A stretch of 64,000 nucleotides of DNA from Candidatus Parcubacteria bacterium (GCA_023132155.1 JAGLYP010000002.1:6598-70597), one strand, 5' to 3'. Positions 9,623 through 63,000 are shown, numbered from the stretch's first letter. The notes: generated by a model from the letters alone, not told the origin. Made by a program: numbers and translations.

Positions 9623-10461
9623 AAAAATTATCAGTTATAATAATTAATTACGGCACGGCAGAGATGACGGAAAAGGTTATCAAGAATTTTATTGTTAAAG
9701 AAAAGTCTTTAAGTTATGAAATAATTTTGATTGATAATAAGTCTGTTGAAAAAATTAATGAAAAGAAATTTTTGGATTTGGGCGCGGAATTAATTAAGAA
9801 TCAAGAGAACCTAGGCTTTGCCAAAGCTGTTAATCAAGGAATAAAACGCGCCCAAGGAGAGTATATTTTATTATTGAACTCCGATGTATTTATTAAGGAA
9901 AACGCTATTTCTAAAATGATTGAATATTTAGAAAGCGATTTGGACGCGGCAATAGCCGCCCCGAAAATATTTTTCCCGAATGGAAGAGTACAAATTAGCG
10001 CCGGAAGATTTCCAAATTTAACAAGGGAATTTTTGCGTTTGTTTAAGCTGTATAATCTAATTCCAAAATCCACTTTAATGAGTAAAAATGAAATGGAAAG
10101 CCATCGCGAGCGCGAAATTGATTGGGTAAGCGGCGCGTGCATGCTTTTTAAACGGGAGTTGACGGACAAAATCGGTTTTTTTGATGAAAAATATTTTTTA
10201 GGGGTTGAAGATATTGATTTTTGCTATCGCGCGCGAAAAAAAGGCTTTAAAAATATTTATTATCCAATGTCAACAGTAATCCATTATCACGGATTTTCGT
10301 CCGGCGGAACTGCGGCAATCAAACGCATTAAATATGATCGAGATGGCATGATATATTTTATGCGAAAGCATTTCCCGAAAAAAGTTTTTAGTTGGATATT
10401 AATCAAACTAATGCATGATTTGAAAATTTTTTTTCTTTTCTGTCATTCCTGTAAAAGTTAA
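9619..10461 (+). CDS. family 2 glycosyltransferase
   Basis: N-terminal SVIIINYG, then IDN.S and LLLNSD (DxD region), then EDIDFCYRA. The last codons run into a GTCATTCCTG word resembling the repeat-element terminus. Confidence 0.8.
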   Translation: MKKLSVIIINYGTAEMTEKVIKNFIVKEKSLSYEIILIDNKSVEKINEKKFLDLGAELIKNQENLGFAKAVNQGIKRAQGEYILLLNSDVFIKENAISKMIEYLESDLDAAIAAPKIFFPNGRVQISAGRFPNLTREFLRLFKLYNLIPKSTLMSKNEMESHREREIDWVSGACMLFKRELTDKIGFFDEKYFLGVEDIDFCYRARKKGFKNIYYPMSTVIHYHGFSSGGTAAIKRIKYDRDGMIYFMRKHFPKKVFSWILIKLMHDLKIFFLFCHSCKS

Positions 10462-10490
10462 TTCATTGACAAAAAAACTCTCTTTTATTT

Positions 10491-10699
10491 GTCATCCTGG
10501 AATTTTTATCGTAGCGACAGCGGAGATAAAAATATCCGGGATCCAGGAGCGCGAGAATTAACTGATAATTAAAATTAACTAATGCCACGTATTAATTTAT
10601 TTATGTAATTGGTCATAATATAATAATTATACATATTACCCCTGGATCCCGGATATTTTTTCTTGTCGCTATCGCTCCAAGAAAAAATTCCAGGATGAC
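10491..10699. mobile_element. miniature (ORF-less) copy of the hairpin-armed GIY-YIG-associated element (copy A)
   Basis: Left arm GTCATCCTGGAATTTTTATC...GATAAAAATATCCGGGATCCAGG (10491-10547). Right arm CCTGGATCCCGGATATTTTTTCTTG...CAAGAAAAAATTCCAGGATGAC (10641-10699). The arms are inverted copies of each other and each folds on itself. AT-rich core of about 90 bp with no ORF. Confidence 0.7.
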
Positions 10700-10782
10700 A
10701 AAATATAGAGGTTTATTAATTTTTGTCAACGGATTTGGTTGACAATATTCAAGACATTAAAAAATTAAAAGCTAGTATAACA

Positions 10783-11781
10783 ATGAAATTAAAAATAACA
10801 CAAAAAAAATATACCCCCAAAGACGCGACAATCGCGGTTACTTATTTTTGCAATTCGCGCTGTAGAATGTGCAATATTTGGCAGGATAAAAATCCGCGGA
10901 GTTTGAAAAAGGAAGATTTTTATAACTTAAGTCCTGATTTAAGATATATTAATTTATCAGGCGGAGAGCCTTTTCTGCATCCTGAATTGCCGGAAATTGT
11001 CCGTATTATAAATAAAGTCAGTCCAAAAGCGAAAATTATCATATCCAGCAATGGATTGGCAACCGGCTTGATTATAAAAACGATGAAAGAGATTAAAAAA
11101 ATTGATTCGCGTGTTGGTATTAGAATTTCAATTGACGGATTGCGAAAAACCCATGATCGTATGCGTGGGATTGATGGAATATATGAGGCTGCTATGAAGA
11201 CGCTTGCCGGTCTTAAGATAATCGGCATTAAAAATTTAGGATTAAGTTTTACGATTATGAATGAAAATGCTGATGAATTGAAAGATATATATAATTTGTC
11301 AAAAGATTTGCAAATTGAATTGGCTTTGGCCTTGGTGCAGAATTCTGAAATATATTTTACAAAAAATGACAACCAGTTAACTTATATTGATAAAGTTAAG
11401 AGCGGCCTGAATTATATTATTAAGCAAGAATTAAAAAGCGCGAACCCAAAGCGCTGGGGGCGAGCTTTTTATGATTACGGTTTGCTAAAATACGCGGAAA
11501 GCAAAGAACGCCTGCTAAAAAGCGGCGCCGCTTACGATTCTTTGTTTATTGATTCCTTGGGAAATGTTTATCCCAGTAATTTGATAAATTTGAAATTAGG
11601 CAGCATCAAAAAAGACAAGCTGGACAATATCTGGCGGTCTGGCAAAGCGCAAGCGGTTCGCGATAAAATAGAAGCGGAAAATATCACGGAAAGCTGGATA
11701 ATTTGTACAATCCGCGGCGAGATGAAAAAAAATATATTTAAGGTTTTGTTTTGGGTGTTAAAGAATAAGTTATGTGTGTAA
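10783..11781 (+). CDS. radical SAM protein in glycan locus
   Basis: CNSRCRMCNIW (CxxxCxxC) near the N-terminus, then GGEPFL. The track starts at TTG 10723; I prefer ATG 10783 because 10723 lies just after the repeat element. The start is uncertain. Confidence 0.7.
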   Translation: MKLKITQKKYTPKDATIAVTYFCNSRCRMCNIWQDKNPRSLKKEDFYNLSPDLRYINLSGGEPFLHPELPEIVRIINKVSPKAKIIISSNGLATGLIIKTMKEIKKIDSRVGIRISIDGLRKTHDRMRGIDGIYEAAMKTLAGLKIIGIKNLGLSFTIMNENADELKDIYNLSKDLQIELALALVQNSEIYFTKNDNQLTYIDKVKSGLNYIIKQELKSANPKRWGRAFYDYGLLKYAESKERLLKSGAAYDSLFIDSLGNVYPSNLINLKLGSIKKDKLDNIWRSGKAQAVRDKIEAENITESWIICTIRGEMKKNIFKVLFWVLKNKLCV

Positions 11782-11871
11782 TGCTAATAATGCGAATAAA
11801 TGCTAATTTGCTAATTGCGAATACTATTCATTAGCAATTCGCAAATTAGCATTTATTCGCGGAATTAGCAT
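11781..11871. repeat. imperfect 91-bp palindrome, family P2 (GCGAATAAATGCTAAT words)
   Basis: ATGCTAAT..GCGAATAAATGCTAATTTGC...GCAAATTAGCATTTATTCGC..ATTAGCAT fills the whole spacer between the radical SAM stop and the GT4 start. Confidence 0.6.
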
Positions 11872-21918: not shown

Positions 21919-22284
21919 ATGACTCTCCATATAGACACAAGCAAAAATAATTTAATATATCTGGCCTTAAAAAATGGCGATGAATTAATTTTGGAAAAGA
22001 AAATTACCGTGCGATATAATCAAGCGGAAAAATTATTGCCCGGAATTGATGAGATTTTAAAATCGGCAAATAGTGATATAGCGAAGATTCAAGAGATTAT
22101 AGTTGTTAATTCAGGCGAGGGTTTTACTGCCTTAAGAATTGGCATAATTACGGCAAACGCGCTTGGTTTTGCTTTAAATATTCCGGTTTTTAGCAGTGAT
22201 AATAAGCAGATAAAAAGTAATTATGATTTTAGCGTTATTGAGCCAAAATATAAAAAAGAACCTAATATTACAACAAGGAACTAA
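21919..22284 (+). CDS. tsaB: TsaB-like protein (N-terminal domain only)
   Basis: 121 aa. IDTS at the N-terminus and SGEGFTALRIGIITANALGFALNIPV (cf. GPGSFTG[LV]RIG of TsaB). The last two codons and the stop (AGG AAC TAA) lie inside palindrome P1a. Confidence 0.55.
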   Translation: MTLHIDTSKNNLIYLALKNGDELILEKKITVRYNQAEKLLPGIDEILKSANSDIAKIQEIIVVNSGEGFTALRIGIITANALGFALNIPVFSSDNKQIKSNYDFSVIEPKYKKEPNITTRN

Positions 22285-22359
22285 GTACCTACGATTTCTT
22301 TTGTTAACTTGGGTTTTAAAACCCAAGTTAACAAAAGAAATCGTAGGTACTTAGTTCCT
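22276..22359. repeat. perfect 84-bp palindrome, family P1 (copy a)
   Basis: AGGAACTAAGTACCTACGATTTCTTTTGTTAACTTGGGTTTT | AAAACCCAAGTTAACAAAAGAAATCGTAGGTACTTAGTTCCT. Two 42-nt arms with no mismatch and no loop. Confidence 0.95.
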
Positions 22360-24204: not shown

Positions 24205-25068
24205 ATGAAAATCGCTAAAGTAAAATTTATTGATTGGGACAAAGAATATAATTTTTCTTTTAATGGTTTGGAATTGAAAGAAGGCGACAAGGTGGTGGTT
24301 AAAACCGAATTAGGTTTGGAGCTGGGTGATGTTGTTGGTTTTAGCGATTTGGATGATAGTGAATATGTTTTGGAAAGTGAAGCGGGCGAGACCGATGAAA
24401 ATGGCGAGCAGACGGAAAAAAATATTATAAAACCGATATTAAGAAAGGCGGTATTGCGTGATTTAGAGAAAATGGTGTCTTTTGATGAAAAGAAAGAGGC
24501 TTTGGAAGTTTGCCGTAAAACCAAGGATCGGCATGATTTGCCAATGAAATTTATTGATGTTCATTATTCTTTTGACGGTTCTCGCGTTACTTTTGCTTTT
24601 ATTGCCGATGGCCGGATTGATTTTCGCGAGTTAGTAAAAGATTTAACAAGGCATTTTGGCAAAACCATTCGTTTGCAGCAAATCGGCATTCGTGATGAAG
24701 CGAAAATAATGGGCGATGTCGGCCATTGCGGGCAAAGACTTTGTTGCCGCGGGCATTTAAAAAATTTAGAATCAATAACATCGGAGATGGCGGATATCCA
24801 GGGTTGCGCCCATCGCGGTTCTGACAGAATCTCCGGAGTATGCGGGCGATTGATGTGCTGTCTGGCTTATGAACAGCGCGGGTATGAGGAATTGGTTAAG
24901 AATTTGCCGCCCATTGGAGCCAAGGTTAATGTTGACGGTAAGCGCGGAATTGTTGTCGGCCATAATCCCTTAAAACAAGCGGTTAAGGTTGAGTTTCAAA
25001 GCGATGGTGAAAATGGCGGCAGGGTTGTTGTTGAAGTTGATTTGAATCGGCATAAAAAACAGATATAA
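24205..25068 (+). CDS. PSP1 C-terminal domain protein (RicT/YaaT-like)
   Basis: ILRKA..RD, the IRLQQIG region, and the Cys cluster CGQRLCC...CGRLMCCLAYE. Confidence 0.7.
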   Translation: MKIAKVKFIDWDKEYNFSFNGLELKEGDKVVVKTELGLELGDVVGFSDLDDSEYVLESEAGETDENGEQTEKNIIKPILRKAVLRDLEKMVSFDEKKEALEVCRKTKDRHDLPMKFIDVHYSFDGSRVTFAFIADGRIDFRELVKDLTRHFGKTIRLQQIGIRDEAKIMGDVGHCGQRLCCRGHLKNLESITSEMADIQGCAHRGSDRISGVCGRLMCCLAYEQRGYEELVKNLPPIGAKVNVDGKRGIVVGHNPLKQAVKVEFQSDGENGGRVVVEVDLNRHKKQI

Positions 25069-25169
25069 TGCCAATCTGCGAATAAATGCTAATCTAGCGA
25101 ATTGCTAATATAATATATTCGTACATTAGCAATTAGCGGCATTCGCGTTTATTCGCAGATTGGCATTAT
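25065..25169. repeat. 105-bp palindrome, family P2 (copy b), shared by convergent genes
   Basis: Outer 22-bp arms are perfect (ATAATGCCAATCTGCGAATAAA / TTTATTCGCAGATTGGCATTAT); the inner part is imperfect. Shares the GCGAATAAATGCTAAT and GCGAATTGCTAAT words with 11781-11871. Confidence 0.8.
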
Positions 25170-27110
25170 ATTTTTTATAAATTTAAAAATATAAACCTCG
25201 CCATTGTCAATTTTTTGCCAAGAATCGGCTTCAAGTTTTGCTTCGGCAAGAATTTTATCAAAAGCCCACCAGTATTTATTTAAAACAAAATATCCGGTGT
25301 TAACCCCAACTAAATCCATGGCGGCTTCCATTGTTTTTTTATTTGGCTTTTTGTAAACCATATCTAAATAATACAGATAAAGACTGCCGCCGGTTGGAAT
25401 CGGGTAATAAAAAATTTCTTCTTCAGCGCTTTGATAATATTTTTTAAAGCCAAAACTGTAAAGGCTGGCAACGCTGGTTTGTTGGTTAGCTAAAACAACA
25501 AAATCTTCTTTTGTATTATATTCTATCCATTTAACCGCGTTTAAATCGCTTTTGCCAACTGAATAGCCGTGAGAATTAAAGTAATGGTCATAGCGCGGAT
25601 AAGAAAAATATAAAGATACGCATATTAGTAGACAGAAAAAGCCTAGAAGCGAGTATTTGATAACTTTATTTTGCGCGAGTATTTTTATTATTAATTGATA
25701 AAAAGCGATTACAATAAACGGTAGCAGAAAAAAGCAGGCCGAAGTTAAAATTCGCTTGCTGTAATTTGCTTGTTCATAGTTGATAAGAAAAGCAAAAGAA
25801 AGTTTTGTGCTTAAAAGGTAGGAAGAAAATAACGCTAAGGATGAAAAAAAATAGAGTGCTAATATTCGGCATTCTTTTTTGTGTTTCAGAGCGATAATTA
25901 TTCCGCTGATAACAAAAAATATTAAAATATATTTAATATTAAATATGAAAAAATATACTGTATTTAAAATGATATTTTCTTTGTCTGGGAGAGAAAATTT
26001 TAAGCAGCTAAAAGAAAAAGTTTCCTGGCTTGTTGAAATGTCTGCCGGTTTTTTTGTATTTTTTTCAAAAAAGAAAAAAGCTAAAGGAAGAGCCAATGCT
26101 AGACTTGAATAAATTATAAAATATCCAAATTTTTTAATTTTTAGCTTGTTATTATAAATTATGATTAAACAGCTGAAAAGCAGAGCGGGAATACCGGCAA
26201 GCGGATGGATAAAAAAAGCGGTCGCGGATAATAAAAAGATGTTTATATAATCAAGAGCGTATTTGCACTTAAGCGAGTAGGCCAGAGTTAAAATTAAAAA
26301 GACGTAAGCTAAATTTTGCGGAGTAGTAACAATTAAAAAAGAAAAAGGCAATATTAATAAAAAAAGAATTGATAGTTGAATAATTTTTTTGTTTTCCAGC
26401 CATTTTGTCAGAACTGAAAGCATAGCGGCCGGTAAAATTATCCCCCCAAAAAAAGGAACTAAAATTTTATCTAAATAAACGATTGGAATTAACGTAATTT
26501 TATTCAGCACCACCACTAAAGCGTATTGTCCTAAATAATAAAATGGCTTAGGATTGACTTCGCCGGTTTTACTGATTAACTCTTCGGTAGCTTGGTGGAT
26601 GAAGGGATCAAAACCATAACCGATTTTGTATATTATTAAAGCAATTGAAAAACTTAAGAAGTAATGAAAAATTATTAAAAGATTTGCCAAGGGCTTGTTT
26701 TTGATGATAATAAACATCAAACAAGCGGTAAGCATAAAGTATAGCGCGTAAAAAATATAGGGGATTGTCTGCCAAGGTGAAATAATAGCTTCTGCTGTTC
26801 TTGAGATAAACAATATATAAGCGGACGCTGTAAATAAAAGCAGATATATAATCGGGGCGAAAAACGCAAAAAAAGTTTTTTTCCGCTTTTCTGTTTTTAT
26901 AATGTTTGTTTTTGGTTTGATTATTATTTGCTTGTTGAATTTTTTTGTAAAGCGGAGTATAATTATAAATGATAAAAAGGCTAATATTAAAATAATAATT
27001 ACGCCGGTAATATTTAATTTATATAGGCGATAGATAATTGCTCCCCAAGAAACAAAAAGACTGAGGGCAATCAGAAGATATTTTAAGATTTTATCAAATT
27101 TAATTGGCAT
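25149..27110 (-). CDS. large polytopic membrane protein, function unknown (possibly GT-C-like)
   Basis: 653 aa with more than 12 hydrophobic helices and a soluble C-terminal domain. The last six codons (IMPICE) and the stop lie inside palindrome P2b. Confidence 0.45.
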   Translation of the reverse strand: MPIKFDKILKYLLIALSLFVSWGAIIYRLYKLNITGVIIILILAFLSFIIILRFTKKFNKQIIIKPKTNIIKTEKRKKTFFAFFAPIIYLLLFTASAYILFISRTAEAIISPWQTIPYIFYALYFMLTACLMFIIIKNKPLANLLIIFHYFLSFSIALIIYKIGYGFDPFIHQATEELISKTGEVNPKPFYYLGQYALVVVLNKITLIPIVYLDKILVPFFGGIILPAAMLSVLTKWLENKKIIQLSILFLLILPFSFLIVTTPQNLAYVFLILTLAYSLKCKYALDYINIFLLSATAFFIHPLAGIPALLFSCLIIIYNNKLKIKKFGYFIIYSSLALALPLAFFFFEKNTKKPADISTSQETFSFSCLKFSLPDKENIILNTVYFFIFNIKYILIFFVISGIIIALKHKKECRILALYFFSSLALFSSYLLSTKLSFAFLINYEQANYSKRILTSACFFLLPFIVIAFYQLIIKILAQNKVIKYSLLGFFCLLICVSLYFSYPRYDHYFNSHGYSVGKSDLNAVKWIEYNTKEDFVVLANQQTSVASLYSFGFKKYYQSAEEEIFYYPIPTGGSLYLYYLDMVYKKPNKKTMEAAMDLVGVNTGYFVLNKYWWAFDKILAEAKLEADSWQKIDNGEVYIFKFIKNIMPICE

Positions 27111-46826: not shown

Positions 46827-48275
46827 TTATTTTGGCGGTGGCGGCACAAAACAGCTAACATTATCACTCTCGTTACCGCTAGTGTCAATTGCGTAAATTA
46901 TAGCATCGCTATTCAGCATTATGTGGGCGGAAATGGCTCCGGCTTGTCCTTTGGCGCTTCCCATGGGCTTTAACTTTGGCGTTGCTCCCGGACTTTCCGT
47001 GATTTTAACCTTATCGCCAGGCGCGAAAGGCCCGAACGGACCGGCTCCATATTTATCAGTTACAAAAATTTCAAGTGTTTCGTTAACATTGTCAACGGCC
47101 AACAGTTCATAGAATCCATCTTCATTTTTTCCTCCTTTGGATCCCGGCAGAGTAGTGCTTCCGGCTGGCGGGATTTTTTTGCCGTGCGGATTAACCGTTT
47201 CAACACAGCTTGCCTCCGGCGGAGTGGTGTCTGGCACGTAGATTGAAATTTTTTGGCGCCCAATCGGTTTTCCTTCTTCAGGGTAGCTATTGGCGATAAA
47301 TGTGACGATGCATTCCAGAGTTTTACCTTGAAGTTCCGGATCATCGTCTACGGCAATTGTTTCAGTAAAGTCAACAGTAGCGCCTCCGAGAACGTCTTTG
47401 TGGACAATTGGATCAAGCGTCACTGAAAGGCCTTCGTCGCAGTCGCCTTCCTTAATATTCCACCACACGTCAGTGGTTACTTCTTTAAGTCCGTTTAAGA
47501 TTGCCTCGGCGATATTGGCGCCGTCCGGACTTAAGGGCTGTACAGAGCCTCTGGTAGCGGCAGCCAGTACATCAAGCTCCGAATCAGTACCTGTTGCCTT
47601 AAGGCCGATTACAACGATGTTCTGAGCTTGAAGTGCGGCGATTGTTGAGGTTGCGTTATTGACATGCGGCTTGCCAACGCCGGGCAAGTGAAATGTCGCG
47701 TCAGTAGCTACTACAAGGACGCGCTGAACACCTGGTGTGATAGCTGGATCGCGCCATCCGCAGTCAGGCGTACCATCTCCAGGTCCTGTCGCGGCAACAA
47801 TAGCGTCGTACTGGGCTTCCGGCCAATCTCCGCCGCCGGCCGCGGTTAACGCGTTAACGCCGTTCATCCATGCATCTTTATCAGGACTCATGGTGCTTAA
47901 CAAACGATAAACATGATCGCCTGGAGAGCCGTAAGGCGGTTCATAATCACGAAAACCGGCAACAGCGAATTGAGCATCCGGACTTTCCGCTGTAATAGCA
48001 TCATAAATATCACTGGATGTAGTACCCTGCAGATTGTCAATATCATCCCAAAATGAGCCGGTTTCATCTTCAAGCAGACAAATATCCACAACAGTAGGAA
48101 CTTCAGGCGTGGTTATTTGTTTTTTTACTACCATGGATCCGCCCGGAGGCAACTCGCCCTCCACTGAAGGCGGTTCAATTTGTCCGTTAGCTCGCGATAC
48201 GCTAACAGCATTAGAGAAAACCATGCCCATACCGATAATAATGGTAAAGACAAGAAAAATTTTAGGTTTTTTCAT
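46827..48275 (-). CDS. secreted VWA/integrin-beta-like domain protein
   Basis: GGAGGG RBS and a signal peptide. MIDAS-like LEDETGSF (DxTGS) after a beta strand. Pro-rich C-terminus ending PPPPK. Strongly G+C-enriched relative to the window. Confidence 0.5.
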   Translation of the reverse strand: MKKPKIFLVFTIIIGMGMVFSNAVSVSRANGQIEPPSVEGELPPGGSMVVKKQITTPEVPTVVDICLLEDETGSFWDDIDNLQGTTSSDIYDAITAESPDAQFAVAGFRDYEPPYGSPGDHVYRLLSTMSPDKDAWMNGVNALTAAGGGDWPEAQYDAIVAATGPGDGTPDCGWRDPAITPGVQRVLVVATDATFHLPGVGKPHVNNATSTIAALQAQNIVVIGLKATGTDSELDVLAAATRGSVQPLSPDGANIAEAILNGLKEVTTDVWWNIKEGDCDEGLSVTLDPIVHKDVLGGATVDFTETIAVDDDPELQGKTLECIVTFIANSYPEEGKPIGRQKISIYVPDTTPPEASCVETVNPHGKKIPPAGSTTLPGSKGGKNEDGFYELLAVDNVNETLEIFVTDKYGAGPFGPFAPGDKVKITESPGATPKLKPMGSAKGQAGAISAHIMLNSDAIIYAIDTSGNESDNVSCFVPPPPK

Positions 48276-53386: not shown

Positions 53387-54493
53387 ATGATTAATAAAAA
53401 GGTCAAAATAATATTAAGTGGGGGCGGTACCGGCGGGTCGGTTACGCCGCTTTTGGCAATGGTTGATTTGTTGAAGCGCGGAAAGTTTGAAAGGCATACT
53501 GAAATTGAATTTCTTTGGATTGGGACTAAAGACGGGCAGGAAAGGCAGTTGGTTAACTCGTCTGGAATTCGGTTTATGTCTATACCGGCGGGTAAATTAA
53601 GGCGTTATTTGTCATTGCAAAATTTTTTGGATTTTTTTCAAATTTATCTTGGTTTTTGGCAGTCTTGTTATATTATTTTAAAAGAAAAACCAAATTTAAT
53701 TATTAGCGCGGGTTCATTTGTGAGCGTGCCGCTTGCGTGGGCGGCATGGTTTTTACGCGTTCCGGTTTTGATCCATCAGCTTGACGCGCGTCCGGGGCTG
53801 GCTAATAAATTAATGGCTCCGTTCGCAAAAACAATTTCAGTAATTTTTAAAAAGTCTTTGGCGGATTTTGGGAAAAAGGCGGTTTTAACAGGCAATTTGA
53901 TTCGCAAGGAATTTATTGAAAATAAAATCAGTAAGCGCGAGGCAGCGCAAAAAATCGGCATGCGGACAGATAAACCGATTTTGCTCGTTATCGGCGGTGG
54001 AACAGGAGCGGGAGCGATTAATGATTTTATTTTGGAAAATATAAGCAGTTTGACAAAATTTTGCCAGATTTTGCATATAACAGGCAAAGGCAAGTCAAAC
54101 AAAAAAATGGAAGAAATAATGGAAAAAAATTCCGGTTATAAATTTTTTGAATTTTTAGATGCTTTCGGTTTAATCAAGGCGTTTGCCGCAGCGGATATTA
54201 TTATTTCACGCGCCGGAATGGGCACCTTAACCGAATTATCCTACATTGCCAAACCGGCAATTATAATTCCCATGCCGAATTCGCATCAGGAAGAAAACGC
54301 TGAAATTTTTTCCAAGGAAGAGGCGGCCGTAGTTTTAAATCAAAAAGAATTGGATGGCGAGGTATTGCTAAATAATATAAAAAAGATTTTAAAAGATGAG
54401 GAGTTAAGAAATAAATTAAAAAATAATATTAAAAAAATTATTAATACGGAGTGTGGGGATGAGATTTTTAATATTGTTAAAGGATTGATTTGA
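53387..54493 (+). CDS. murG: UDP-N-acetylglucosamine--N-acetylmuramyl-(pentapeptide) pyrophosphoryl-undecaprenol GlcNAc transferase
   Basis: GGGTGGSVTP at the N-terminus, VIGGGTGA, and SRAGMGTLTEL. Confidence 0.9.
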   Translation: MINKKVKIILSGGGTGGSVTPLLAMVDLLKRGKFERHTEIEFLWIGTKDGQERQLVNSSGIRFMSIPAGKLRRYLSLQNFLDFFQIYLGFWQSCYIILKEKPNLIISAGSFVSVPLAWAAWFLRVPVLIHQLDARPGLANKLMAPFAKTISVIFKKSLADFGKKAVLTGNLIRKEFIENKISKREAAQKIGMRTDKPILLVIGGGTGAGAINDFILENISSLTKFCQILHITGKGKSNKKMEEIMEKNSGYKFFEFLDAFGLIKAFAAADIIISRAGMGTLTELSYIAKPAIIIPMPNSHQEENAEIFSKEEAAVVLNQKELDGEVLLNNIKKILKDEELRNKLKNNIKKIINTECGDEIFNIVKGLI

Positions 54494-54519
54494 GAAATTG
54501 CAGTTTGATTTTCTCTCTT

Positions 54520-55000
54520 GTCATCCTGGGGCTTGACTGGAGCAACAGCGCGCCCAACGGAAGTGCCCTTGGGGTAGAAGTCAAGAACCCGGGATCCAGG
54601 AGAAAAAGCTCAAACTATAAATTAATTTTCAAAGACGAAAAAAGAATACATTTATTACACATACATTTTAGCAAGCAAAAGAAACGGGACATTATATATA
54701 GGAGTAACAAACAGTTTATATTCAAGAATATTACAACATAAGCTAAAACAAAATAAAAACAGTTTTACGGCAAAATATAATACAGATAAACTTGTTTATT
54801 ATGAAGAATATCAAAATATTCAAGACGCGATAGCCCGTGAAAAAAAATTAAAAAGATATAAAAGACAGTGGAAAATAGAATTGATTGAAAAGGATAATCC
54901 CGTTTGGAGAGATTTTTTTAAAGACATGGAATGAGCTTTTACCCCTGGATCCCGGATATTTTTATTTCCGCTGCCGCTCCAATAAAAATTCCAGGATGAC
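54520..55000. mobile_element. hairpin-armed element carrying a GIY-YIG nuclease ORF (copy B, putative autonomous copy)
   Basis: Left arm 54520-54600 (GTCATCCTGGGGCTTGACT...AGTCAAGAACCCGGGATCCAGG). Right arm 54944-55000 (CCTGGATCCCGGATATTTTTATT...AATAAAAATTCCAGGATGAC). The termini are inverted repeats, shared with copies at 10491-10699 and 62851-63000. Confidence 0.75.
54626..54934 (+). CDS. GIY-YIG nuclease (UPF0213/YhbQ-like), open frame without a canonical start codon
   Basis: Translation is ..KKEYIYYTYILASKRNGTLYIGVTNSLYSRILQHK...KYNTDKLVYYEEYQNIQDAIAREKKLKRYKRQWKIELIE... (GIY...YIG, catalytic R, E). No ATG/GTG/TTG between the upstream in-frame TAA (54623-54625) and the domain, so it is missing from the ORF track. 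Confidence 0.7.
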   Translation, partial: FSKTKKEYIYYTYILASKRNGTLYIGVTNSLYSRILQHKLKQNKNSFTAKYNTDKLVYYEEYQNIQDAIAREKKLKRYKRQWKIELIEKDNPVWRDFFKDME

Positions 55001-55037
55001 AAAAAACGGGAACATTCGTTAAAATGACAAAAAATTT

Positions 55038-56339
55038 ATGAAAAATTGCAGCTTAATTATAAAAGGAAAATATGTTTTAACAATGGATGACAAAATGTCT
55101 GTTTTTAATGATGGGGTTGTGGCGGTTGATGATGATGAAATAATAGCAATTGGCGAAAAGGAAATTTTAGAAAAGTACAAGAGTGAAAAAATTATTGATG
55201 CGGGAAACAGTATTATTATGCCGGGGCTGATTAATACGCATACGCACGCGGCCATGGCGTATTTTCGCGGGTTAGCTGATGATTTGCCTTTGCCGGTATG
55301 GTTGGAAAAGCATATTTGGCCGGCTGAGGCTAAATATGTTAATAAGAATTTTGTTAAAAAGGCTTCAGCGCTTGCTTGTTTGGAAATGATAAAATCGGGA
55401 GTTACTTGTTTTAATGATATGTATTTTTTTGAACAAGAAACCGCTTCGGTTGCAAGCCGGATCGGAATGCGCGCTTTAATCGGCGAAGTAATATTGGATT
55501 TTCATACGCCAAGCTGTAAAACTCCAAAAGAAGCGCTGAAAAAAACAGAAGAAATGATATTAAAATATAAAGACAGCGAATTAATTTCAGTGGCAGTCGC
55601 GCCTCATTCTATCTATACTTGTTCAGAGGAAAATTTAAGCAAATCGAAAGAATTAGCAGACAAATATTCAATTAATTTGCATATACATATAAGCGAAACT
55701 GAAAAAGAAAATAAAGATTGTTTGAGAGATAATGAAAAAAGTCCGGTTAAATATTTGGATGAGCTGGGAATTTTGAATAATAAAACAATTGCCGCGCACA
55801 GTATTTGGCTTGATGATGAAGATATTGAGATATATAAAAATAGGCAGGTAAAAATAAGCCATTGCCCGATTAGCAATATGAAATTAGCCTCCGGTATTAT
55901 GAATTTTAAAAAAATGCGTGAATCGGGTTTGGTAATCAGTTTGGGAACGGACGGCGCGGCAAGCAATAATACTTTGGATTTATTTTCTGAAATGCGCGCT
56001 TGCGCTTTATTGCATAAAGTAAACAATTTGAATCCGGAAATAGCCTCTGCAACTGAAATCGTAAAAGCCGCGACAATTAACGGCGCCAAGATCTTGGGAA
56101 TGGATGATAAAATCGGTTCGCTTGAAATTGGCAAAAAAGCTGATATAATAACTGTTAATTTGAATAAGCCTCATTTGACCCCGATTTATAATCCATGTTC
56201 GCATTTGGTTTACGCGGTTAATTTAGCGGATGTGGAGAATGTGATTGTTAACGGCAAGCTGATTATGCAAAACAGGGAAGTTTTGGGTTTGGATGAGGAT
56301 AGAATATTAGAAGAGGCATGTAAGTTCAAAAGGAACTAA
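55038..56339 (+). CDS. mtaD: amidohydrolase, 5-methylthioadenosine/S-adenosylhomocysteine deaminase-like
   Basis: MPGLINTHTHAAMAYFRGLADDLPLPVWLEKHIWPAE, HISET, and GTDGAASNN. The last two codons and the stop lie in palindrome P1b. Confidence 0.75.
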   Translation: MKNCSLIIKGKYVLTMDDKMSVFNDGVVAVDDDEIIAIGEKEILEKYKSEKIIDAGNSIIMPGLINTHTHAAMAYFRGLADDLPLPVWLEKHIWPAEAKYVNKNFVKKASALACLEMIKSGVTCFNDMYFFEQETASVASRIGMRALIGEVILDFHTPSCKTPKEALKKTEEMILKYKDSELISVAVAPHSIYTCSEENLSKSKELADKYSINLHIHISETEKENKDCLRDNEKSPVKYLDELGILNNKTIAAHSIWLDDEDIEIYKNRQVKISHCPISNMKLASGIMNFKKMRESGLVISLGTDGAASNNTLDLFSEMRACALLHKVNNLNPEIASATEIVKAATINGAKILGMDDKIGSLEIGKKADIITVNLNKPHLTPIYNPCSHLVYAVNLADVENVIVNGKLIMQNREVLGLDEDRILEEACKFKRN

Positions 56340-56414
56340 GTACCTACGATTTTTTTTGTTAACCTGGATTTTAAAATCCAGGTTAACAAAAAAAATCGTA
56401 GGTACTTAGTTCCT
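56331..56414. repeat. perfect 84-bp palindrome, family P1 (copy b)
   Basis: AGGAACTAAGTACCTACGATTTTTTTTGTTAACCTGGATTTT | AAAATCCAGGTTAACAAAAAAAATCGTAGGTACTTAGTTCCT. Fills the whole mtaD-murC spacer, ending 2 nt before the murC ATG. Confidence 0.95.
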
Positions 56415-62850: not shown

Positions 62851-63000
62851 GTCATTCCATGGGCGCGGAGCGCAACCTGGAATCCAGGAGGGCGAGAAAT
62901 AAATAAACAATAACAAATAAGTATAGTACGTGCATCTTACCCCTGGATCCCGGATATTTTTTCTTGTCGCTTAAGTTCCAAGAAAAAATTCCAGGATGAC
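62851..63000. mobile_element. miniature (ORF-less) copy of the hairpin-armed element (copy C)
   Basis: Left arm GTCATTCCATGGGCGCGGAGCGCAACCTGGAATCCAGG (62851-62888). The right arm (62942-63000) is 53/59 identical to copy A's right arm, and all differences fall in the hairpin loop. Confidence 0.7.

Follow-up and report, generated by a model that had tools for sequence, protein, structure and literature searches.

The question raised by positions 54520 to 55000 of this stretch of Parcubacteria DNA (64,000 nt in all, hereafter the window) is whether a small GIY-YIG nuclease gene lying between two inverted, hairpin-forming arms stands for an undescribed class of element, as a sequence-only reading had proposed for this copy (B) together with two smaller ones (A and C), or whether it belongs to a system already known. 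The window sequence is part of the 383-kb contig DAOVLK010000001.1 of the Parcubacteria MAG GCA_030631305.1, and all three copies are present in it at the coordinates of Table 1. Their six arms have common boundaries, GTCATCCTGG and CCGGGATCCAGG, that occur far above chance: the left arm of each locus starts with GTCAT(C/T)C and ends with GGA(A/T)TCCAGGAG, and the right arm is its inverted counterpart, CCCCTGGATCCCGG...CCAGGATGAC. On searching the window with at most 2 mismatches, CCTGGATCCCGG gave 12 matches against 1.04 expected, a count reached in none of 100 shuffles, and CCAGGATGAC with at most 1 mismatch gave 6 matches where 0.71 were expected from shuffled sequence. No arm copies beyond these six were found in the window by blastn-short, which was used in place of an nhmmer profile built from four arms that returned no match because the model was too short. 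The sequence TTTGGATCCCGG at 47136-47147 differs from the inner boundary motif by 2 mismatches; it is not surrounded by an arm, falls within a long minus-strand ORF (46827-48275) and is most likely a chance match. When the six arms are aligned, the ends GTCAT and GGATCCAGG are invariant and the interiors variable. The right arm of B is 92% complementary to the left arm of A, and the right arms of A and C are identical at 57 of 61 positions with all four differences in the apical loop, so that the earlier count of 53/59 has to be corrected while its placing of the differences in the loop stands. The alignment also bears out the compensated change from CTTG/CAAG to ATT/AAT in the right arm of B.

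Table 1. Coordinates of the arms, cores, gene and flanking features of the three copies, counted from the first letter of the window
Feature	Position	Strand	Remarks
Copy A left arm	10491..10549	+	Forward orientation
Copy A core	10550..10638	.	AT-rich, no ORF; same core in L054, L057 (Patescibacteria MAG JAYEHJ01)
Copy A right arm	10639..10699	-	Reverse orientation
Left copy of duplicated target	54491..54510	+	TGAGAAATTGCAGTTTGATT; starts at the murG stop codon
Pyrimidine-rich tract	54511..54519	+	TTCTCTCTT; directly 5' of GTCAT, copy B
Copy B left arm	54520..54602	+	SRM/NTS-like hairpin, forward; GTCATCCTGG...CCGGGATCCAGGAG, stem CTTGAC/GTCAAG
Mini-insert of 26 nt	54551..54576	+	CGCCCAACGGAAGTGCCCTTGGGGTA; loop of copy B left arm, from the alignment
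ssn ORF, copy B	54635..54934	+	99 codons + TGA; single-domain GIY-YIG nuclease
Copy B right arm	54942..55000	-	SRM-like hairpin, forward motif on the minus strand; stem ATTTTTATT/AATAAAAAT
Right copy of duplicated target	55039..55058	+	TGAAAAATTGCAGCTTAATT; the amidohydrolase gene start, 17/20 identical to the left copy
Copy C left arm	62851..62890	+	Short G+C hairpin type, GTCATTCCATGGGCGCGGAGCGCAACCTGGAATCCAGGAG
Copy C core	62891..62939	.	No ORF; conserved in L027, L032, L052, L139, L142
Copy C right arm	62940..63000	-	Reverse orientation

Some further repeats adjoin the arms. A module cTGTCATTCCTGTAAAAGTTAATTCATTGACAAAAAAA (10439-10475) is present about 15 nt upstream of copy A, where it overlaps the glycosyltransferase stop codon, and similar modules precede ORF-less elements in the MAG CAZDHZ01 (loci L020, L040, L043 and L050). 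Copy A also keeps its inverted symmetry beyond GTCAT (10473-10507 and 10683-10717). At 55023-55034, in the 37-nt spacer between the right arm of B and the duplicated target, there is an extra AATGACAAAAAA half-site resembling the tandem ..GGATGAC.. arrays that follow the arms in other phyla (L015, L028, L046, L063, L084 and L099).

Every arm folds as a single-stranded DNA hairpin, with z between -2.9 and -5.3 in the four arms that are about 60 nt long and a weaker signal for the left arms of B (z -1.6) and C (z -2.0); the whole of copy A folds with -87 and -98 kcal/mol on its two strands (z -12 and -14). The shared arm ends and this folding confirm that the three loci form one family with hairpin-forming inverted arms. 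To describe the hairpin we used 18 distinct arms, chosen by their termini alone, which gave a consensus of 23 pairs. Its lower 7 bp, ATCCTGG/CCGGGAT, are constant in the 18 arms and include a T.G wobble that is invariant and carried by the forward strand, and in the upper stem 8 pairs have changed in a compensatory way, one such change being ATTTTTAT/ATAAAAAT versus CTTGAC/GTCAAG. An apical motif GGAGCG..GCG recurs among the arms, and a pyrimidine-rich tract lies 5' of GTCAT at every forward arm. The arms are 40-83 nt long, and in the five longer ones the forward strand exceeds the reverse strand, which shifts register, by 1.6-2.4 kcal/mol in stability; the short left arm of C has no strand bias (-8.8 forward against -9.0 reverse). 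The natural variation suggests that the site is fixed in GTCAT, in the 7 bp at the base of the stem with their T.G wobble and in C-CAGG, and that the upper stem is free to vary.

Strong folding, covarying stems, a strand-specific invariant T.G wobble and cores conserved across genomes are also what a structured non-coding or regulatory RNA would give, in which case the ORF-less copies of about 150-200 nt would be genes for small RNAs or hairpins that regulate in cis. We consider this improbable. The motif is present in both orientations at each locus, so that two same-sense copies cannot be part of a single transcript. Also, Rfam gave no match at the gathering threshold or at E up to 10 other than generic long-hairpin microRNA models: the gathering-threshold scan of the whole window returned tRNA-Gln only, the permissive scans of copies A and C only those microRNA models below threshold, and a tRNA/tmRNA scan nothing near the three loci. 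There is no terminator signature either. Terminator-like sites were absent around copy B and no T-run follows the arms, so ordinary terminators do not describe them, in line with the earlier reading. It may be noted as well that the homologous SsnA protein, taken up below, does not bind RNA (PMC11893778).

The GIY-YIG ORF is present in copy B alone, A and C being ORF-less, as had been noted. Its product matches the Pfam GIY-YIG family (PF01541, E 4.8e-15) with no second domain, the match covering residues 10-83 of a 102-residue query that starts 3 codons upstream of the ACG discussed later; no NCBIfam family and no entry in a PDB sequence search matched it. The residues Y10, Y21, R31, H35, E69 and N88 of the GIY-YIG type are invariant in 15 homologues. 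The protein had been called UPF0213-type, a label that turns out to be loose, since its identity to E. coli YhbQ (UPF0213), which is likewise a small single-domain GIY-YIG protein of about 100 aa, is 22% (pairwise E 0.002), against 50% over 90 residues (E 3e-32) to a 94-aa orthologue of SsnA in Neisseria gonorrhoeae, in which Y6, Y17 and E64 align to Y10, Y21 and E69. YhbQ thus represents a different subfamily, and membership in UPF0213 was rejected. The gonococcal ORF was found by tblastn of a plasmid collection (PLSDB) and was called SsnA from its length, the Y6/Y17/E64 residues and its NTS flanks, not from an accession. Two 2.17-Mb N. gonorrhoeae chromosomes, NZ_CP119140.1 (L150) and NZ_CP119142.1, are filed as plasmids in that collection.

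The literature on GIY-YIG proteins combined with MITE, UPF0213, COG2827 or REP gave nothing relevant, and it was the motif GTCATTCCCGCG, used as a text word, that led to the paper by Chenal et al. (2025, Nat Commun 16:2388, PMC11893778), which defines the Ssn family (GIY-YIG cd10448) together with its flanking hairpin repeats, NTS and SRM. SsnA of Neisseria meningitidis is a 94-aa single-domain GIY-YIG protein (cd10448) in which Y6, Y17 and E64 were mutated; NTS (CGTCATTCCCGCGMAVGCGGGAATCYRG) is a directional hairpin repeat within the Neisseria repeat family dRS3, SRM is its generalised form, and NTS/SRM repeats flank SsnA in many phyla (PMC11893778). The enzyme requires the hairpin in ssDNA form for binding and cleaves a few nt upstream of it, is inactive on dsDNA, RNA and the reverse strand, and lowers transformation by NTS-bearing DNA (PMC11893778). 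The organisation at our locus was therefore already described, and with it the claim of a new class falls, the more so because the same paper noted the insertion sequence-like layout of NTS-ssnA-NTS and drew the analogy to IS200/IS605 and REP/RAYT, with mobility as a hypothesis (PMC11893778).

The likeness covers both the gene and its repeats. The window protein and SsnA are single-domain GIY-YIG proteins of 94-99 aa with aligned catalytic residues, and in both systems the gene lies between inverted repeats with 5' GTCAT, a palindrome and C-YRG, of which gene-less intergenic copies exist too. The ssn gene of copy B is flanked 5' and 3' by SRM-type arms (54520-54602 and 54942-55000), and the window arms keep the NTS end signature, that is 5' GTCAT, an AT-to-AT stem palindrome and then C-YRG (here C-CAG). 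As ssDNA, the GTCAT strand folds in an NTS-like manner in which GTC and CCAGG stay unpaired. In other respects the arms differ: they carry a covarying extended hairpin of 25-55 nt where the published repeat has a 3-5-nt loop, as well as the T.G wobble and the recurrent apical motif. As a result the published pattern, HGTCWYN(0-2)YYVSBRHN(0-5)WNVSBRGN(0-2)RNCYNB, has 0 matches in the window, because its loop limit is 5 nt, and the membership of the arms rests on their end signatures and on the protein homology instead of the literal definition. The natural long arms are consistent with the published finding that cleavage persists when additional paired sequence takes the place of the loop (PMC11893778). 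Among the points against the Ssn/SRM explanation is that around the N. gonorrhoeae ssnA (L150) the NTS is in reverse orientation upstream and forward downstream, opposite to the window and to most metagenome loci. Taking all this together we regard it as highly probable that the three loci are Ssn/SRM members and that in copy B an ssn gene for an ssDNA nuclease is bracketed by inverted copies of its own recognition element. The window units are a new, long-armed Patescibacteria member of the family.

We then have the distribution of arms and gene across genomes. In an exact-pattern scan of one genome per species, 56 stretches contained the arm ends, from which G+C-rich single matches resembling chance were set aside. 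The real arm copies are in several Patescibacteria MAGs and in CAZDHZ01, a 31%-GC MAG labelled Gammaproteobacteria that holds at least 10 copies; in Hyphomonadaceae and Terricaulis MAGs the same junction sequences are found with G+C-rich hairpins. Nine CAZDHZ01 ('uncultured Gammaproteobacteria') loci have 29-35% GC (L004, L006, L011, L016, L020, L040, L043, L045 and L050), and this MAG, with its Patescibacteria-type ORF-less copies, may be misclassified or contaminated. The same type of ORF-less element as in CAZDHZ01 was seen in a Cloacimonadota MAG (L048, QMNM01). The ORF-less units form subfamilies whose cores are conserved between genomes, one with copy C (L027, L032, L052, L139 and L142) and another with copy A (L054 and L057). 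The full arm-ORF-arm unit is present at four loci of the Parcubacteria MAG JAGLIO01, with proteins about 90% identical to that of the window.

To relatives further away we applied a metagenome protein-profile scan, which returned 80 loci of more than 575 relatives, with 47-74% identity and 29-67% GC. By eye, nearly all of the 80 have tGTCATTCCCGCG..GCGGGAATCCAG upstream and an inverted copy downstream, and exact NTS consensus matches flank 14 of them. The literal SRM pattern caught only 24 of 76 genes upstream and 34 of 72 downstream, and a relaxed arm detector was used for this reason, with which a correctly oriented arm was found within 200 nt upstream of 50 of 74 genes (68%) and downstream of 39 of 68 (57%), with arms on both sides in 31 of the 61 related genes testable on both sides, against a background of 0.028 per 200 nt per strand (2.8%). 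The association of GIY-YIG ORFs of this subfamily with such arms thus holds widely. It also decides against a free-standing homing endonuclease of the I-TevI/Seg kind whose arms would be incidental palindromes or terminators. The GIY-YIG domain and the intergenic site between conserved genes would suit such an enzyme, but a 99-aa protein of essentially one domain lacks the DNA-binding extension, the arms are tied to the gene across 29-67% GC, no terminator-like sites are predicted and the arm pattern is missing from viral contigs; with the gene family regularly flanked by SRM hairpins, this explanation is refuted for practical purposes and we give it hardly any credence.

The ssn copy of the window is unusual at its start. 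After the in-frame TAA at 54623 no ATG, GTG or TTG start is present in the ORF, and in the nucleotide alignment an ACG (54635-54637) occupies the place where homologues have ATG; the close homologues are 99 aa long and start with MKKEY, and the NCBI annotation begins at an ATT at 54650 (P0001, 94 aa). The reading frame is intact apart from the start codon, and dN/dS is about 0.1 among six ssn copies (the window ORF and five others), so either the loss of the start is recent or an alternative start is used. Without a canonical start codon this copy may be inactive. A second, intact ssn unit is present in the same genome (L144, 1401-1869 of contig DAOVLK010000004.1, GCA_030631305.1), whose protein (P0005) has an ATG start and is 93% identical to that of the window, and it sits exactly between a pilB-like ATPase gene and pilC, two genes of a type IV pilus cluster. 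Transformation that depends on the pilus is modulated by the Ssn system in Neisseria. Both the Ssn protein and the bases of the arms are under selection.

As regards mobility, on comparing five full units of two genomes the homology runs exactly from TGTCAT to ATGACA, with none in the flanks. Hairpin modules have been exchanged between copies, and the alignment places the 26-nt mini-insert in the loop of either arm: CGCCCAACGGAAGTGCCCTTGGGGTA is missing from the otherwise equivalent L005 arm and is inverted in the right arm of L035. The presence/absence polymorphism expected of such units was found at two sites. At the murG/amidohydrolase junction the relatives L139 and L140 (amidohydrolase 84% identical) are element-free, the murG stop overlapping the amidohydrolase start (ATGA) and the empty site reading ..ATGAAAAATTGCAGTCTAATT.., and in the window copy B lies there between two copies of TGARAAATTGCAGYTTRATT, a 20-nt duplication with 17/20 identical; in L142 an ORF-less element at the same junction has a shorter duplication of about 13 nt. 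At the pilB/pilC junction both the window's genome (L144) and JAGLIO01 (L147) have a unit, with no target duplication, and the junction is empty in L148 and L149 (PilC 85% identical), which have a plain 31-nt spacer. The metagenome unit L116 lies between two perfect 28-nt copies of the upstream gene end. The duplications are not general, though: a test of 86 arm pairs against permuted flanks showed none for most of the units, and the cases found are these three only (window B, L142 and L116), with lengths that vary from 13 to 28 nt. In a separate observation, the gap from ftsW to murG, just a 37-nt spacer in the window, contains an ORF-less element (430-700) and an extra 138-aa gene in L139. 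Around this element there is one more inverted repeat, CGCCCAGGCATGAATGCCAGGGCT / AGCTCTGGCATTCATGCCTGGGCG, which makes the modules nested.

The family membership, the architecture and the insertion polymorphism of the units are matters of observation; a spread of the units as mobile modules, now or in the past, is only inferred. A further explanation, compatible with the Ssn/SRM one and going beyond it, is an autonomous transposon with the GIY-YIG ssDNA nuclease as its sole protein, by which the ORF-less pairs would be mobilised in trans. The sharp limits at TGTCAT and ATGACA with unrelated flanks, two orthologous sites empty in relatives, duplications of 20, about 13 and 28 nt, conserved ORF-less cores and the many copies in CAZDHZ01 all speak for it, and the same hypothesis was raised in PMC11893778. 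On the other side, an Ssn protein is without strand-transfer chemistry and excision or insertion intermediates are not known, the duplication is variable in length and usually absent, and the swapping of hairpin modules points to recombination among copies. Paralogues within one genome have dS of 0.3-0.6, about 0.4, and are thus old copies, unlike those of an actively proliferating IS, and with purifying selection a long-term retention or domestication fits better. On this balance the autonomous element is a possibility that we do not favour. It is rather doubtful that the arm-ssn-arm units are, now or recently, self-mobilising ssDNA elements with the ORF-less units as their MITEs and 13-28-nt duplications made on insertion; if true, duplications of such variable length would set the transposition mechanism apart from every described class. 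Of the known types, copies A and C resemble a classical MITE or transposon in having terminal inverted repeats, no ORF and multiple copies, and differ in having no fixed-length duplication; a partner transposon was rejected as well, there being no transposase and the sole ORF having a GIY-YIG nuclease domain. We know of no strand-transfer activity in a GIY-YIG nuclease alone. The empty sites and duplications are therefore suggestive but limited evidence that the units move by their own nuclease, and transposition or homing by Ssn is an unproven proposal, here as in PMC11893778.

The mechanism suggested by the characterised homologues is most likely an ssDNA-specific cleavage adjoining the arm hairpins, for which the T.G wobble of the forward strand and the pyrimidine tracts 5' of GTCAT are indirect support. 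By this analogy copy B would carry an ssn gene for a site-specific GIY-YIG endonuclease of about 99 aa acting on ssDNA, and each arm would be an SRM/NTS-type hairpin made up of the 5' pyrimidine tract, GTC, the AT-to-AT stem and C-CAGG. Single-stranded DNA may arise in replication, in recombination or on uptake via the type IV pilus/competence, whereupon the strand with GTCAT...ATCCAGG would fold and Ssn would bind the base of the hairpin and cut a few nt 5' of GTCAT; on the plus strand the likely cleavage region, judged from SsnA (PMC11893778), is TTCTCTCTT (54511..54519). With inverted arms, each strand would be cut immediately beyond the unit. On copies A and C the nuclease would act in trans and would in this genome most plausibly be the product of the intact pilB/pilC paralogue, because the window copy has lost its ATG. 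In the cell the role would presumably be restriction of incoming ssDNA.

Among the nearest known systems, IS200/IS605 elements are read at both ends on one strand, and the NIMEs of Neisseria are short intergenic repeat units bounded by inverted dRS3/NTS hairpins. The NIMEs are the counterpart of the ORF-less copies A and C, except that the cores and the phylum are different and the window units are single arm-core-arm modules, not arrays. With REP/BIME-RAYT and IS200/IS605 the units share a small nuclease that would read subterminal ssDNA hairpins, a gene between its own repeats and hairpin repeats that far outnumber the gene. The window enzyme is, however, GIY-YIG by Pfam and not an HUH/Y1 transposase, and strand transfer by it is not known, so that membership in either group was rejected; moreover the inverted end hairpins make the recognised strand differ at each end of a unit. 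What is new with respect to the described Ssn/SRM systems is the Parcubacteria (Patescibacteria) MAG host, a group not mentioned in PMC11893778, the ORF-less pairs as subfamilies of conserved composite units, the sharp boundaries, the empty sites and the duplication, along with at least two ssn paralogues in one genome and the lost ATG of the window copy.

Other repeats of the window are distinct from the arms. Two 85-nt perfect palindromes (22275-22359 and 56330-56414), 93% alike and each directly after a gene end, form a repeat family of their own, and both stay perfect because every difference is mirrored in both halves. Imperfect palindromes rich in GCTAAT/GCGAAT, with 42 and 55 nt per arm, are also present after gene ends (11781-11871 and 25058-25176), and the CAATTACGAATT motif, possibly related to them, fills intergenic spacers in relatives (L139 321-340 and L148 1470-1500).

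To our knowledge Ssn is the only nuclease family that is site-specific and cuts ssDNA exclusively, and it is under development as a tool. The mobility of NTS-ssnA-NTS was asked about in the 2025 paper, and for that question the empty sites, the sharp boundaries and the duplication are relevant comparative evidence without settling it. Also, since the natural hairpins exceed the length that the published pattern allows, pattern-based surveys undercount the Ssn family, at least in Patescibacteria.
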